From sequence record PV292302.1: a stretch of 64,000 nt of DNA; one strand, given 5' to 3'. How positions within the stretch are numbered: the first letter of the stretch is position 1; every line of letters begins with the position of its first letter. Both the position numbers and the translations under genes were made by a program. Under the pieces are notes generated by a model. It did no database searches, had not been told where the DNA came from, and saw only the letters and a list, made by a program, of their open reading frames with translations. Positions 26,290 to 29,555 of this stretch are shown here, one piece after another. This stretch comes from Escherichia phage Jgk1.

Positions 26290-26371
26290 GGGGGAGTAGT
26301 CAAGCGGTCGAAGACGGCAGACTGTAAATCTGTTATCCCACACGGTAGTTCGAATCTACCCTCCCCCACCA
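26290..26371 (+). tRNA. tRNA-Tyr (anticodon GTA), type II with long variable arm
   Basis: acceptor GGGGGAG/CTCCCCC, anticodon arm GCAGA-CTGTAAA-TCTGT, T-arm GGTAG-TTCGAAT-CTACC, encoded CCA. Confidence 0.7.
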
Positions 26372-26372
26372 C

Positions 26373-26447
26373 GGTAAGTTAGCTAAATGGTGAAGCGGCT
26401 GACTGTTAATCAGTGATAGAGTGGTTCGAGTCCACTACTTACCGCCA
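26373..26447 (+). tRNA. tRNA-Asn (anticodon GTT)
   Basis: acceptor GGTAAGT/ACTTACC, anticodon loop CTGTTAA, T-arm AGTGG-TTCGAGT-CCACT, encoded CCA. Confidence 0.7.
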
Positions 26448-26452
26448 TATTA

Positions 26453-26529
26453 CGGAGTTTAGCTCAGTCTGGTAGAGCATCTGCTTTGGGAGCAGAGGGT
26501 CGTAGGTTCGAGTCCTGCAATTCCGACCA
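26453..26529 (+). tRNA. tRNA-Pro (anticodon TGG)
   Basis: canonical D-arm GCTC-AGTCTGGTA-GAGC, anticodon arm TCTGC-TTTGGGA-GCAGA, T-arm GTAGG-TTCGAGT-CCTGC, encoded CCA. Confidence 0.75.
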
Positions 26530-26631
26530 AACAATGCGTCGTTAGCTCAAACAAGGAGAGAGCGTGGGTCCGGTAGCTCCGGGTTAAACCCAAGGTTGGG
26601 AGTGCAAGTCTCCTGCGGCGTACCAAACAAT

Positions 26632-26707
26632 TAGGGGTTAGTTCAGTTGGTAGAACATCGGACTTTGATTCCGAATGTCACAGGTTCGAATCCTGTACCC
26701 CTTGCCA
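26632..26707 (+). tRNA. tRNA-Gln (anticodon TTG)
   Basis: D-arm GTTC-AGTTGGTA-GAAC, anticodon arm TCGGA-CTTTGAT-TCCGA, T-arm ACAGG-TTCGAAT-CCTGT, discriminator G, CCA. Confidence 0.75.
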
Positions 26708-26709
26708 AT

Positions 26710-26785
26710 TGCTTCATAGCTCAGCAGGTAGAGCGTTCCCCTGATAAGGGAGAGGTCACTGGTTCGAACCCAGTTGAAGCAACCA
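26710..26785 (+). tRNA. tRNA-Ile (anticodon GAT)
   Basis: acceptor TGCTTCA/TGAAGCA, D-arm GCTC-AGCAGGTA-GAGC, anticodon loop CTGATAA, T-arm ACTGG-TTCGAAC-CCAGT, CCA. Confidence 0.75.
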
Positions 26786-27834
26786 ACATCCTATCAATGA
26801 GTACACTTGATTGAGGTCAGAAGATGAAATGAAGCTTCTGTAAAATGAATCCACAGAGTGTGCTCTTTGATAGTTTTCGTAAGCGATTATGCGGTTTTTT
26901 AGAAACGAACCAAAAACATAAATGCAAACGATGATGTTGTTCTGATGGCTGCTTAATTGCATAACCATTAGTCAGGAGTGAGTCGTCCTGATTATCAAAC
27001 GACCGTGGAGTTCTCCCGTCCATGTATTAGAAACGGGAGGCCAACTATGACCAGAGTAGCATGGGGCAAATGCACGGTTAGCTGCCGGGATGAGGGTTCG
27101 AATCCCCAGATGGTCAAAGTCCAGACGATATCTGAGTGACTTTAAAAACAGATGGAGCCAGGTGGAATCCCTGGCAATTAATACATACCATTGGCTTTAC
27201 AACACAAGTCCAACAGTTGGGCATAGGGCAGCAACCCTATAATCAGGTGAACGAGAACTTGTCTGGTAGTTGGTATGTAACCCCAACCGTTTCAGAAGAT
27301 GCAGGCAAGACCACGCAGCCCGTTGATAAACGTAGTGGCTGCTGGACAAGATGTAAAACGAGGCGTCGTTACACGCCTATCGTCACCATCTGAAAGGTAA
27401 ACGGTTTGCAACCGTACTAAATTCCAGGATATCAGCACTAGGTATAGCCATAATGTAATGCGCAACAGTTAAGGTAAGCCAACAAGTGTTTGGTTGATGT
27501 AGTCAGGGTTCATGGCCTGATTAGAAGGTTCGATTCCTTCTCCTGGAACCAATTCAAAGTAGCACTGTATCTTTAAATGTTTCCCGGCATTCAAAGCACA
27601 CACCGTGACAGTGCTACCCTGAATTGAAAGAATTATGGGGGCGAGGTCGTTAATACGACGGCGTAAGTACCAGATGAGACTTCTGGACGCCCCTACCACA
27701 TTCTGAACCAGTAAAGAAACATCCGAACTAACTATTAACTCTTAATGAGTGAAATAAGAAGTCCCCAAGGGGTTGGGTGAGATAACGCTATATCTGAGGA
27801 AGCAGGTAAGAATCCTGCATGGTTCACCAGTTAA

Positions 27835-27967
27835 GTCCGTTTAGCTCAGGGGTTAGAGCACGAGAGCCAAAGCATCGTTTCTACTTCGGTAGACAGCCTA
27901 GCTGGTCAAACGACAACGACTCGGTGTGAGGCCAGAGGTCATTGGTTCAAATCCAATAACGGACTCC
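27835..27967 (+). ncRNA. tRNA-like RNA with about 58-nt central insertion (no canonical anticodon arm)
   Basis: perfect 7-bp acceptor GTCCGTT/AACGGAC, canonical D-arm TAGCTCAGGGGTTAGAGCA, canonical T-arm ATTGG-TTCAAAT-CCAAT; the 80 nt between them include a UUCG-tetraloop hairpin and no 5-7-5 anticodon stem-loop. Confidence 0.3.
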
Positions 27968-28200
27968 CTATTAAGCAGTAACACAGTCCTGATTGCATAG
28001 CACTCTAAAGGCATCACTGGTAAGACAGTCCAGTGGCTGTTATATTGAAAACCATACCCCCGACAAGGTGTATGGAGTATGAGCAGACTATAATGCTCGC
28101 TAAGGAAACAGAGAAACGGACTATCAATCCATGTCTGCTTGACTCTTAAAGTGTTTCACTGATTTCCTGCCTAGCCTCGTTGACTGCGTTAAAGTCACTA

Positions 28201-28233
28201 AGTCCCCCTAGCACCACATAGGGGGACTTTTTT
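28201..28233 (+). terminator. rho-independent terminator closing the tRNA / structured-RNA region
   Basis: 9-bp stem AGTCCCCCT/AGGGGGACT followed by TTTTTT. Confidence 0.6.
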
Positions 28234-28271
28234 ATTTGAGTAACTACACTCGTTTCAGGAAAAAAAGAAAA

Positions 28272-28640
28272 ATGAAACTATTAGACTTACCAAATGAAAT
28301 TCGCAACGCAGTTCTTCAAAGTGCTATGCGTGTAATGTCTGAGTCAACAGACATGGCTCACATGTTACAGAAAGCAGACTTGCTACTTAATCATGACTTC
28401 CCTGAACTATCTTCAAGATGCCTATCTGTAGAACAGGCCGAAGAACTCGTAGCCAAAGCCAAATGGATTGCTGAATTCACCAAGGTATTCGAGGTGTTCT
28501 GGGCTAACTCTGGGTATCCTCGTAAGCATTGGCGTAGTACTTTGAATGGTGAGTTATCCACTTGGATTTATGGTGATGAGTGGAAGAATTCAGATGCTGC
28601 ATCAGCAGCTAAATCAAACATCTCCTACTGGGAAAATTAG
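28272..28640 (+). CDS. hypothetical protein
   Basis: ATG at 28272 (MKLLDLPNEIRNAV...); the ORF-track start at 28236 runs into the terminator. Confidence 0.4.
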   Translation: MKLLDLPNEIRNAVLQSAMRVMSESTDMAHMLQKADLLLNHDFPELSSRCLSVEQAEELVAKAKWIAEFTKVFEVFWANSGYPRKHWRSTLNGELSTWIYGDEWKNSDAASAAKSNISYWEN

Positions 28641-28641
28641 T

Positions 28642-29058
28642 ATGGAACTCGAACAACAGATTAAAGAAGCTGGTGCTGATAAAGCTCCACGTATTACCCC
28701 TAACCACATCAAGAGTAAAGTACTTGGTACTTACTTCTTTACTGGCCTGGATGGTGCAGCATCAGTGTTGCCTGATTTGGCAACCATTAAGAACCAGGAA
28801 GTACAGTCACTGTCCTTGCTGACATTCTGTGTACTGGTTCTGGAGAACGGTTTCACTGTTACTGGCGAGTCTGCCTGTGCATCCCCAGAAAACTTCAACG
28901 AAGAAATTGGACGTAAGATTGCCTACGAAAATGCAATCGATAAAGTCTGGTTACTTGAAGGCTACCTCCTTAAGCAAAACCTGCATGAGAAAACTCAGAG
29001 CCGGGAAATGCTCAAGGGTTTCTTGGATGAAGGTGACTGTGCAGGGTGCAAACTCTAA
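28642..29058 (+). CDS. N4 gp49 / Sf6 gp66-family-like protein (putative)
   Basis: pattern ...LTFCVLVLENGFTVTGESACASPENFNEEIGRKIAYENAIDKVWLLEGY... recalled as typical of that family; position just upstream of the vRNAP gene region. Confidence 0.45.
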   Translation: MELEQQIKEAGADKAPRITPNHIKSKVLGTYFFTGLDGAASVLPDLATIKNQEVQSLSLLTFCVLVLENGFTVTGESACASPENFNEEIGRKIAYENAIDKVWLLEGYLLKQNLHEKTQSREMLKGFLDEGDCAGCKL

Positions 29059-29555
29059 TGGAAACTAAAATTCATTTCACCAACTACATTGGAACCAAGT
29101 GTGTAAATGGTTTCCCAATGAACAAGGTTGACTACTGCATACTTCGTGGTTGGGATGTACCTGCTACCGAAGACCCATTAGAAGAAGGTTACTTAGTAGA
29201 GTACCCGGATTCTAAACCTAACCATGAGCAATTCCGTGGTTACATTAGCTGGTCACCCAAGGCTGCATTCGAAGAAGCATACCGTGACGTAGTAAGCGGT
29301 TGTACTTTTGGTCATGCAGTGGAGCTTCTTAAGAAAGGATTCAAAGTAGCCCGTAAAGGCTGGAACGGTAAGGGTATGTATATCTCTTACGTTGCTGCCG
29401 AAGAATGGGCAAGTAGTGAACTGGAACGTCCCTGGTCAAAAGACCTCAAGCCCATCCCTTGGATTGGTATGAAGACTGTAGACGATACATATGTTCCGTG
29501 GTTAGCTTCTCAGTCAGATATTCTGGCAGTAGATTGGGTATTAGCAGAGAGCTAG
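29046..29555 (+). CDS. DUF2829-domain protein (Tad2-like candidate anti-Thoeris) with N-terminal extension
   Basis: C-terminal half carries FGHAVELLKKGFKVARKGWNGKGMYI and ...VPWLASQSDILAVDW..., matching DUF2829 hallmarks from memory; about 80 aa precede the domain. Confidence 0.5.
   Translation: MQTLMETKIHFTNYIGTKCVNGFPMNKVDYCILRGWDVPATEDPLEEGYLVEYPDSKPNHEQFRGYISWSPKAAFEEAYRDVVSGCTFGHAVELLKKGFKVARKGWNGKGMYISYVAAEEWASSELERPWSKDLKPIPWIGMKTVDDTYVPWLASQSDILAVDWVLAES

Follow-up and report, generated by a model that had tools for sequence, protein, structure and literature searches.

A tRNA-shaped, non-decoding RNA family of phages and phage-plasmids bears a conserved three-hairpin module in place of the anticodon arm

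Escherichia phage Jgk1 (sequence record PV292302.1), an N4-like podophage of the Schitoviridae close to the Enquatrovirinae (Moo19, IME11, G7C group), encodes a transfer RNA (tRNA)-shaped RNA that has no anticodon arm. Its gene, here called the element, lies on the plus strand at positions 27835 to 27964 of the 64,000-nucleotide (nt) stretch that was analyzed, referred to below as the window, from whose first letter all coordinates are counted. We find that the element is not a decayed or intron-split tRNA and that it cannot read codons. It belongs to an RNA family previously undescribed as a family, which is borne by N4-like, P1-like, lambdoid-type, and very large phages and is strictly mobile-element borne. 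The family, together with the pattern by which its tRNA frames exchange their central parts like cassettes, is solid and was unexpected, whereas its function we infer. The explanation we favor, with a probability of roughly 55%, is that the element is a gene for a non-decoding RNA of ~130 nt in which the tRNA shape serves as a processing and stability scaffold for an effector module.

The tRNA frame of the element is complete at both ends. The acceptor strands GTCCGTT (27835-27841) and AACGGAC (27958-27964) pair at 7 of 7 positions, and all seven pairs change on both sides among the 22 family members described below. The D arm (GCTC-AGGGGTTA-GAGC, 27844-27859), with G18 and G19, has a stem kept in 22 of 22 members with one compensatory change, and the T arm (ATTGG-TTCAAAT-CCAAT, 27941-27957) covaries in three of its five pairs. 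The 3' acceptor strand is followed by a discriminator U and then CCC, the whole spanning 27958-27968. A26 (27860) and the T stem are set apart by 80 nt (27861-27940), as against 22 in a class I tRNA. Of these, 75 nt (27861-27935) stand at the place of the 17-nt anticodon arm, and the remaining 5 nt form the variable loop AGGUC (27936-27940), which is conserved in most members. The initial annotation of this locus, made from the sequence alone, had described the perfect 7-base-pair (bp) acceptor, the textbook D and T arms, and the 80-nt central segment in place of about 22 nt, and our measurements bear it out on each.

The central part has a four-helix layout of its own. C27 (27861), pairing with G43 (27935), is the sole remnant of the anticodon stem; the pair is CG in 20 of the 22 members and AU in 1. 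It is followed by an asymmetric internal loop, seen in the alignments, in which GAGA (27862-27865; family consensus NAGA) faces CA (27933-27934). Helix P2 comes next and consists of P2a, formed by GCC (27866-27868) and GGC (27930-27932), and P2b, formed by GCAUCG (27872-27877) and CGGUGU (27922-27927). An invariant UU (27878-27879) leads into three consecutive hairpins, HP1 (UCUAC-UUCG-GUAGA, 27880-27893), HP2 (CAGC-CUA-GCUG, 27894-27904), and HP3 (GUC-AAAC-GAC, 27905-27914), and an invariant junction strand, AACGA(C)U (27915-27921; family consensus AACGAUU), leads out of them. The 3' strands of P2b and P2a, the loop CA, and G43 then complete the segment (27922-27935), as indicated by covariation and by RNAalifold. 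HP1 had been noticed earlier as a CTAC-UUCG-GTAG hairpin; that hairpin is present, at 27881-27892, although its stem really comprises 5 bp (TCTAC/GTAGA). Folded as a single sequence, the element forms the acceptor, D, and T arms plus three small hairpins at -42 kcal/mol (z = -2.25).

Standard tools do not see a tRNA here. In the window, ARAGORN calls five tRNAs between 26290 and 26785 and no tRNA or transfer-messenger RNA (tmRNA) at the element. Rfam recovers the same five at its gathering threshold (RF00005, 29 bits) without matching the window copy, and in sensitive mode it matches the T arm alone at the element (14.2 bits). Both searches had been proposed in the initial annotation as checks, and neither assigned a canonical anticodon arm. 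With RF00005 the element shares the 7-bp acceptor, the D arm, and the T arm with its conserved T loop, and it lacks the anticodon arm (5-bp stem, 7-nt loop, U33, and purine 37). The Rfam tRNA model does pass its threshold on some siblings of the element (35 to 47 bits), where it aligns 27:43 only, as in sibling L016, and skips a 74-nt insert. None of the members checked is called by ARAGORN. Furthermore, when every single internal deletion leaving 17 nt was made in each of the 22 members, and 5 bp, U33, and purine 37 were required, 0 of 22 regained an anticodon arm; only L005 forms a 5-bp stem, without U33. This exhaustive count agrees with the earlier inspection by eye, which had found no 5-7-5 stem-loop in the segment.

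The family emerged from searches of phage genomes and of sequence collections. By BLAST against phage genomes, a single match spans both the tRNA body and the insert, namely Pseudomonas phage Littlefix (N4-like, 74% identity), whose acceptor and T stems and hairpins differ from those of the element in a compensatory way. IMG/VR, GTDB genomes, and JGI metagenomes were scanned with the shared block ATCGTTTCTAC-N4-GTAGAC. A genome-contig scan with a 15-base pattern returned mostly chance matches, with one true member, L101, among the matches listed, and a relaxed viral scan added one more, L156. After filtering, the four collection scans yield a family of at least 22 distinct members, many of which sit inside tRNA clusters, 2 to 10 nt from canonical tRNAs. 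Besides the window phage, the carriers include its ortholog L024 (a 70-kb N4-like contig with the same neighbors), 11 P1-like phage-plasmids hosted by E. coli, E. albertii, and Salmonella, prophages akin to temperate Yersinia phages, contigs of 134 to 371 kb and one of 866 kb that resemble very large phages, and an Orrella (Burkholderiales) genome bin. Among 5,426 complete E. coli genomes, 6 contain the module, always on P1-like plasmids and never on the chromosome. RefSeq labels the P1-like siblings "tRNA-OTHER", and Rfam 15 has no family for the element or its siblings. We found no description of the family in the literature on tRNA-like RNAs of N4-like phages, on phage tRNA introns, or on RNA anti-CRISPRs (Racrs) with tRNA.

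Other unusual tRNA-like units were seen next to family members. Directly upstream of the member on a 259-kb viral contig (L026, 1779-2085; also on L016 and L199) lie three more tandem tRNA-like genes with non-canonical central parts of 109, 109, and ~83 nt, and these contigs, likely from very large phages, seem to bear arrays of such RNAs. Just upstream of the Littlefix member (L001, 1418-1489) we observe a 72-nt tRNA-like unit with D and T arms, an imperfect acceptor, and only 18 nt (CTCTTAGCCGAGAAGGTC) for the anticodon arm and variable loop, which scores 41.6 bits with the covariance model R1 introduced below.

All members share one architecture: the tRNA frame, the 27:43 pair, the asymmetric NAGA/CA internal loop, a covarying P2, and the three-hairpin module AUCGUU-[UCUAC N4 GUAGA]-HP2-HP3-AACGAU-U-CGAU. 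We propose these features as family criteria; the window element has every one of them, including all helices. P2a comprises 3 bp, all of which covary (GC to CG). P2b comprises 6 to 9 bp, with invariant inner pairs AUCG/CGAU and covarying outer pairs (GC 11, CG 6, AU 2, UA 1, GU 2), in agreement with RNAalifold. The four pairs of HP2 all change on both sides, and of the three pairs of HP3 the middle one covaries (UA 18, GC 4). By contrast, the HP1 stem never covaries, while its tetraloop varies (UUCG, GUAA, UCCG, UUAG, GAAA, CUCG).

This fold is supported by two covariance models. R1, made from a hand-drawn consensus, gives members 103 to 157 bits and ordinary tRNAs at most 62. R2, built with RNAalifold from 20 members with the window element and its ortholog L024 left out, gives the window element 128.6 bits (E ~4e-31), compared with 28 to 53 bits for the real tRNAs of the window. 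In the model-based alignment of the 22 members, base pairing holds in 97.5% of cells and changes on both sides are seen at 22 of the 39 pairs, counts that lean toward the model since the alignment was fitted to R1; RNAalifold independently predicts the same helices. None of 500 shuffles reaches any of the covariation measures, and slid partners leave only 31 to 50% of cells paired. In addition, G-U pairs are present when the plus strand is read (GU 5, UG 3, UG 3, GU 4), which fits an RNA transcribed from the same strand as the tRNAs.

The junction itself can be drawn in two ways. The 5' AUCGUU strand, which comprises the inner P2b strand (27874-27877) and the UU, can pair either with the distal CGAU, which extends P2, or with the proximal AACGAU (AACGA at 27915-27919 in the window), which gives a four-way junction with nothing unpaired. 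By nearest-neighbor energies the two pairings differ by at most 0.2 kcal/mol in nine members and by at most 3.6 kcal/mol in all but one. Because the AUCGUU columns are invariant and the energies near-equal, covariation cannot choose between the pairings, and a two-state module appears possible.

The comparison of slots and frames between phages shows a second pattern. In three phage lineages, one and the same tRNA frame with its flanks holds as its central part either a normal anticodon arm or a module. The trnT gene of P1 (Thr, UGU) and the element of P1-like plasmids have the acceptor, the T arm, and the downstream sequence in common, and differ at positions 27 to 48 and at a few D-loop positions. 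In Klebsiella KP8-like phages, the frame of the window tRNA-Ile(GAU), TGCTTCA...TGAAGCA, encloses another module, of 30 nt (CAGGAGAGCUUCGAAAGAACAAGGUGCCUG). Finally, the slot of the window element, recognizable by a conserved downstream block, is occupied by a nearly normal tRNA in PhAPEC5, by the 30-nt module in Bas96 and pSb-1, and, in the window and L024, by the 75-nt one. The 30-nt module is the second conserved one; as CAGGAGAGCUUCGA(A/G)AGAACAAGGUG(C/U)CUG it replaces the anticodon arm in L003 (271-359), L029 (1145-1232), L298, L300, and L295-L297, and in L295-L297 it lies within a very different tRNA-like frame. Tandem tRNA-like genes with still other inserts are found on very large phage contigs. 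Recombination between neighbors is also documented: the annotated tRNA-Ile of Shigella virus Moo19 (L002, 1460-1536) is a deletion chimera that joins the 5' half of a window-type tRNA-Ile to the 3' half of the element, including its T arm and AACGGAC strand, with ~1.1 kb removed. Its acceptor is unpaired, and it is not called by ARAGORN.

Two further loci relate to these slots and frames. On the P1-like plasmid pF404-2 (L302, 2830-3125), two related units lie between the element and a tRNA-Ser; they have the frame GTTGTGATG...CATCACAA and differing inserts, and this frame is the odd one that bears the second module in L295-L297. In Klebsiella phage VLCpiP4b, the slot of the window element (L003, 1243-1330) holds an unusual tRNA-like unit with the acceptor GGGGTCG/CGACTCC, an encoded ACCA, a 9-nt loop closed by a CTAGG/CCTAG stem, and a T-like loop that is oversized.

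Across the family, neither the acceptor sequences nor the discriminator bases are conserved, which argues against recognition by one specific aminoacyl-tRNA synthetase. Together with the exchangeable central parts, this leads us to assign the effector role to the module and to see a generic scaffold in the tRNA part. Under the scaffold explanation, the RNA would be transcribed from the plus strand together with the tRNA cluster. Its frame has the sequence features of an RNase P substrate, namely a coaxial 12-bp acceptor and T stack and an intact elbow, and cleavage at the 5' end may be predicted from them. Given that the stack and elbow nucleotides persist and that roughly half of the members encode CCA, tRNA-type 3' trimming and CCA repair would probably follow. 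The suggestion in the initial annotation that this is an uncharacterized processing substrate is compatible with such a route and too vague to describe it; processing of the tRNA type, by virtue of the frame, is probable. The product would be a stable L-shaped RNA, a natural version of the E. coli "tRNA scaffold". The module would then be the working part, with the invariant HP1 stem and junction strands read sequence-specifically by a partner that is conserved among Proteobacteria or their phages, be it protein, RNA, or small ligand. Most likely the RNA would bind or sequester that partner, and the two mutually exclusive partners of the 5' AUCGUU strand may give the module two states.

Several observations weigh against this explanation. 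CCA is not encoded in the window copy. In L101, L211, L004, and L008 the acceptor helix runs on for 9 to 17 bp into the flanks and leaves no free NCCA end; tRNA-like substrates of processing do not usually look like this, and a longer transcript may be the setting in which some members act. Two of these (L004 and L008) have a Shine-Dalgarno sequence and an ATG within 25 nt on the 3' side and, upstream and on the same strand, a gene for a CI-like (S24) repressor. The family has no consistently linked gene: one for a gp49/Sf6-gp66 family protein lies close to the element in the N4-like setting as well as the P1-like one, and is also present in N4-like relatives without the element. That AUCGUUUCUAC, GUAGA, and CAACGA do not vary is due in part to the search patterns, which required TCGTTTCTAC, GTAGA, and CAACGA; one anchor scan only was independent of these patterns. 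That scan, which used the 3' block and variable loop (CAACGATTCGAT...AGGTC) without HP1, returned already known members only, all with the same HP1, and R1 detected no further member in 82 other loci; HP1 thus appears truly invariant, at least in those members whose 3' block is of the consensus type. Lastly, we infer RNase P maturation, stability, and any binding partner alike.

A more far-reaching version of the scaffold explanation is tentative and, in our estimate, rather unlikely. It holds that phages use tRNA genes as exchangeable scaffolds in which the segment 27 to 48 is swapped, probably by recombination in the near-universal D- and T-arm sequences, for cargo RNAs. The module would in this case be a counter-defense RNA that sequesters a factor of the host or of a rival element, such as an HP1-reading protein or an immune signaling ligand bound at the junction.

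Equally doubtful is a decoy function, which is a sub-case of the scaffold explanation in which the tRNA body is itself part of the bait. The body would attract an anticodon nuclease, a tRNA-modifying toxin, or another tRNA-binding defense protein, and the module at the anticodon site would block or trap it. The strictly kept elbow and acceptor features speak for this, as does the position of members next to phage tRNA-Asn and tRNA-Tyr genes, isotypes that are targeted by anticodon nucleases. The restriction of the family to phages and phage-plasmids and the Tad2-like anti-defense gene 1.1 kb downstream of the element in the window also fit. However, the frames are of differing origin (Thr in P1-like plasmids, another in N4-like phages), so that they imitate no one isotype, and the long closed acceptor helices of some members would make these poor copies of a tRNA.

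The sequence of HP1 raises the prospect of an RNA anti-CRISPR-like mimic of a type V-A (Cas12a) CRISPR RNA on a tRNA scaffold, which would load a guide of no use into Cas12a or a related RuvC nuclease; we hold this to be quite improbable. In such a mimic, the repeat hairpin would be represented by HP1, a dead "spacer" of 10 nt by HP2, and the following repeat's 5' end by HP3. Phage RNA anti-CRISPRs against type V-A are experimentally established, and the Moraxella V-A repeat used for comparison is given in the supplement of the same work (PMC10651486). Like a Racr, the element is a phage-encoded small RNA with a CRISPR-repeat-like hairpin: HP1 (UUUCUAC-N4-GUAGA) equals the stem of that repeat (GTCTAACGACCTTTTAAATTTCTACTGTTGTAGAT) letter for letter, and the window HP3 (GTCAAACGAC) matches 9 of its first 10 nt. 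The order of hairpin, short insert, and repeat 5' end is that of a CRISPR unit, and HP1 has the one stem that never covaries, unlike all other helices. Published Racrs are nevertheless near full-length repeat copies (34 to 36 of 36), whereas the element matches only the stem (12 nt) and a separate 10-mer (9 of 10). Cas12a reads the AAUU 5' of the repeat stem and the final U; in the element these critical nucleotides are CGUU, with CG base-paired in P2, and C. Since Cas12a tolerates stem changes that preserve pairing, identity of the stem is not what it selects. HP3 moreover covaries as a mere helix, no second copy or array of the HP1 hairpin occurs in the window, and V-A systems are not known from the identified hosts (E. 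coli, Salmonella, E. albertii, Yersinia-type, Pseudomonas, Burkholderiales). We keep the match of HP1 to the V-A repeat as a low-probability rival and an unexplained coincidence.

By analogy, the module could also be viewed as a small-molecule aptamer on a tRNA scaffold, an "RNA sponge" or sensor whose junction would form a pocket for an immune signaling nucleotide or a metabolite, which we regard as very unlikely. The layout is riboswitch-like, with a multi-helix junction, invariant junction strands, covarying peripheral helices, and two near-isoenergetic alternative pairings, and a neighboring gene in the window encodes a Tad2-like domain; Tad2 is a protein sponge for Thoeris signals. Yet no Rfam riboswitch matches, there is no expression platform and no consistently regulated gene, an invariant HP1 stem sequence is unusual for the periphery of an aptamer, and the idea is purely one by analogy.

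The initial annotation had also offered an interrupted tRNA; on this reading the central segment would be an intron, self-splicing or removed by an enzyme, and a decoding tRNA would be produced. The annotation's claim that the insert is too short for a group I intron stands, 75 nt being far under the size of a group I catalytic core (P3 to P9, ~200 nt or more), and the interrupted gene it proposed does not survive, its probability now being slighter even than that of the aptamer. The orthology of the frame to real tRNA genes (P1 trnT), the "tRNA-OTHER" label, and the siblings above the Rfam tRNA threshold are in its favor. Against this, the anticodon stem strands are absent save for 27:43 and not merely separated, so that the flanks cannot form an anticodon arm and no single deletion rebuilds one in any of the 22 members. 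The element shows no Rfam match to a group I (RF00028) or group II intron or to ribozyme families even at E up to 10, and the bulge-helix-bulge splicing endonuclease is, to our knowledge, absent from bacteria. Hardly credible at all is a non-functional relic, that is, a tRNA pseudogene with junk gained by recombination, because, real as recombination among these tRNA genes is in the Moo19 chimera, covariation contradicts it: the structure is kept via compensatory changes in 22 members from very different phages, and 74% identity extends over the whole body between an enterobacterial and a Pseudomonas phage. A recent horizontal spread free of selection is likewise excluded by the compensatory changes.

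Comparison with known RNAs places the element outside each class considered. Rfam as a whole, including ribozymes, riboswitches, and CRISPR repeats, gives nothing relevant at the gathering threshold or at E up to 10. The element is like a canonical tRNA (RF00005) in its 7-bp acceptor, G18/G19 D arm, AGGUC variable loop, TTCRANT T loop, and cluster position, in the CCA that members often encode, and in the orthology of the P1-like plasmid frame to P1 tRNA-Thr; it is unlike one in having no anticodon stem-loop beyond 27:43, in its 75 nt in place of 17, and in going undetected by Rfam at gathering and by ARAGORN. The species 1 and 2 RNAs of T4 (rnaC and rnaD) resemble it as phage-encoded RNAs of ~120 to 140 nt at the end of a tRNA cluster, with a T-arm-like element and no known function. 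They differ from it in that they show no sequence or model similarity, rnaC is without a D arm, and the module is absent; R1 run on the T4 locus L150 finds the T4 tRNAs only and does not detect rnaC or rnaD. The earlier likening to a stable tRNA-like small RNA of the T4 tRNA region accordingly holds in so far as this is a conserved, covarying family in phage tRNA clusters, and fails as regards homology to the T4 RNAs.

With YrlA and other Y RNA-like molecules (RF02553) the element shares a tRNA-like domain combined with an extra protein-binding helix, and YrlA RNAs are often phage or prophage encoded. The arrangement is permuted, however: YrlA ends in a Ro-binding stem, and the ends of the element form the acceptor stem. 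RF02553 gives 16 bits, compared with a threshold of 69, on an offset region (27778-27887). A tmRNA, too, has a tRNA-like acceptor and T-arm domain and, in place of the anticodon arm, a long helix that opens into additional structure, but in the element a true D stem is present, pseudoknots are absent, and no tag frame is conserved, the reading frame through the conserved block differing between the window and Littlefix (L001). The tRNA-Other gene of Bacillus cereus (PMC3399842) is likewise a non-decoding tRNA-like gene, and its label is also attached to siblings of the element, yet it is a chromosomal cloverleaf of normal size, while the element has a large conserved module and is found in phages and phage-plasmids only. 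A matching design is man-made. In the engineered "tRNA scaffold" for producing recombinant RNA in E. coli, reportedly due to Ponchon and Dardel, the anticodon arm is swapped for a foreign structured RNA, and retention of the acceptor, D, and T arms lets the cell process and stabilize the chimera. The design of the element is natural; the conserved cargo modules number at least two, and exchange takes place between frames. The element is a member of none of the following: T4 species 1 and 2 RNAs, pseudo-tRNAs, YrlA, tmRNA, and the engineered tRNA scaffold.

In the window, the five canonical tRNA genes upstream of the element (26290-26785) are Tyr, Asn, Pro, Gln, and Ile, all on the plus strand and found by both ARAGORN and Rfam. 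The element sits inside the ~1.4 kb on the 3' side of this cluster (26786-28230), which contains no convincing open reading frame. The first plus-strand site resembling an intrinsic terminator after the cluster and the element is a hairpin (28200-28229) with a T run, together spanning 28200-28239, and none occurs between the cluster and 28200. Downstream of this site, two adjoining genes, at 29046-29555 and 28546-29058, encode the Tad2-like domain protein (PF11195, E = 2.6e-23) and the gp49/Sf6-gp66 family protein (PF13876), respectively.

The 1.4-kb region has other features that resemble an island of non-coding RNA genes. Several T-arm-like motifs occur in it, for example GGGTTCGAATCCCC at ~27095-27108, and the homologous region of Klebsiella phage VLCpiP4b (L003, 260-1100) has several odd tRNA-like units too. 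A second tRNA-like candidate in the window (27423-27551) has the acceptor TCCAGGA/TCCTGGA, the T arm GAAGG-TTCGATT-CCTTC, and an encoded ACCA, with ~85 nt instead of the D and anticodon region, including a TCAGG/CCTGA hairpin whose 8-nt loop contains CAT; it scores 21 bits with R2 and is partially conserved in related coliphages. Directly on the 3' side of the element, the block CAGTAACACAGTCCTGATTGCATAGCACTCTAAAG...GACAGTCCAGTGGCTG (27969-28045) is 80 to 92% conserved in ~60 N4-like coliphage and Klebsiella phage genomes, irrespective of the occupant of the slot.

Phage tRNA clusters are usually read as supplements for codon usage or against nucleases, and their odd entries are dismissed as pseudogenes or "tRNA-OTHER". 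At least some of these odd entries are in fact a conserved, structured, non-decoding RNA family, to which tRNA finders and Rfam are systematically blind. The family provides a testable candidate for a phage effector RNA in tractable hosts (E. coli with P1-like plasmids or N4-like phages), as well as a natural precedent for the tRNA-scaffold trick of biotechnology. Should phages indeed use tRNA genes as exchangeable scaffolds for counter-defense cargo, this would amount to a new class of tRNA-borne anti-defense RNAs and a new mode of tRNA gene evolution.

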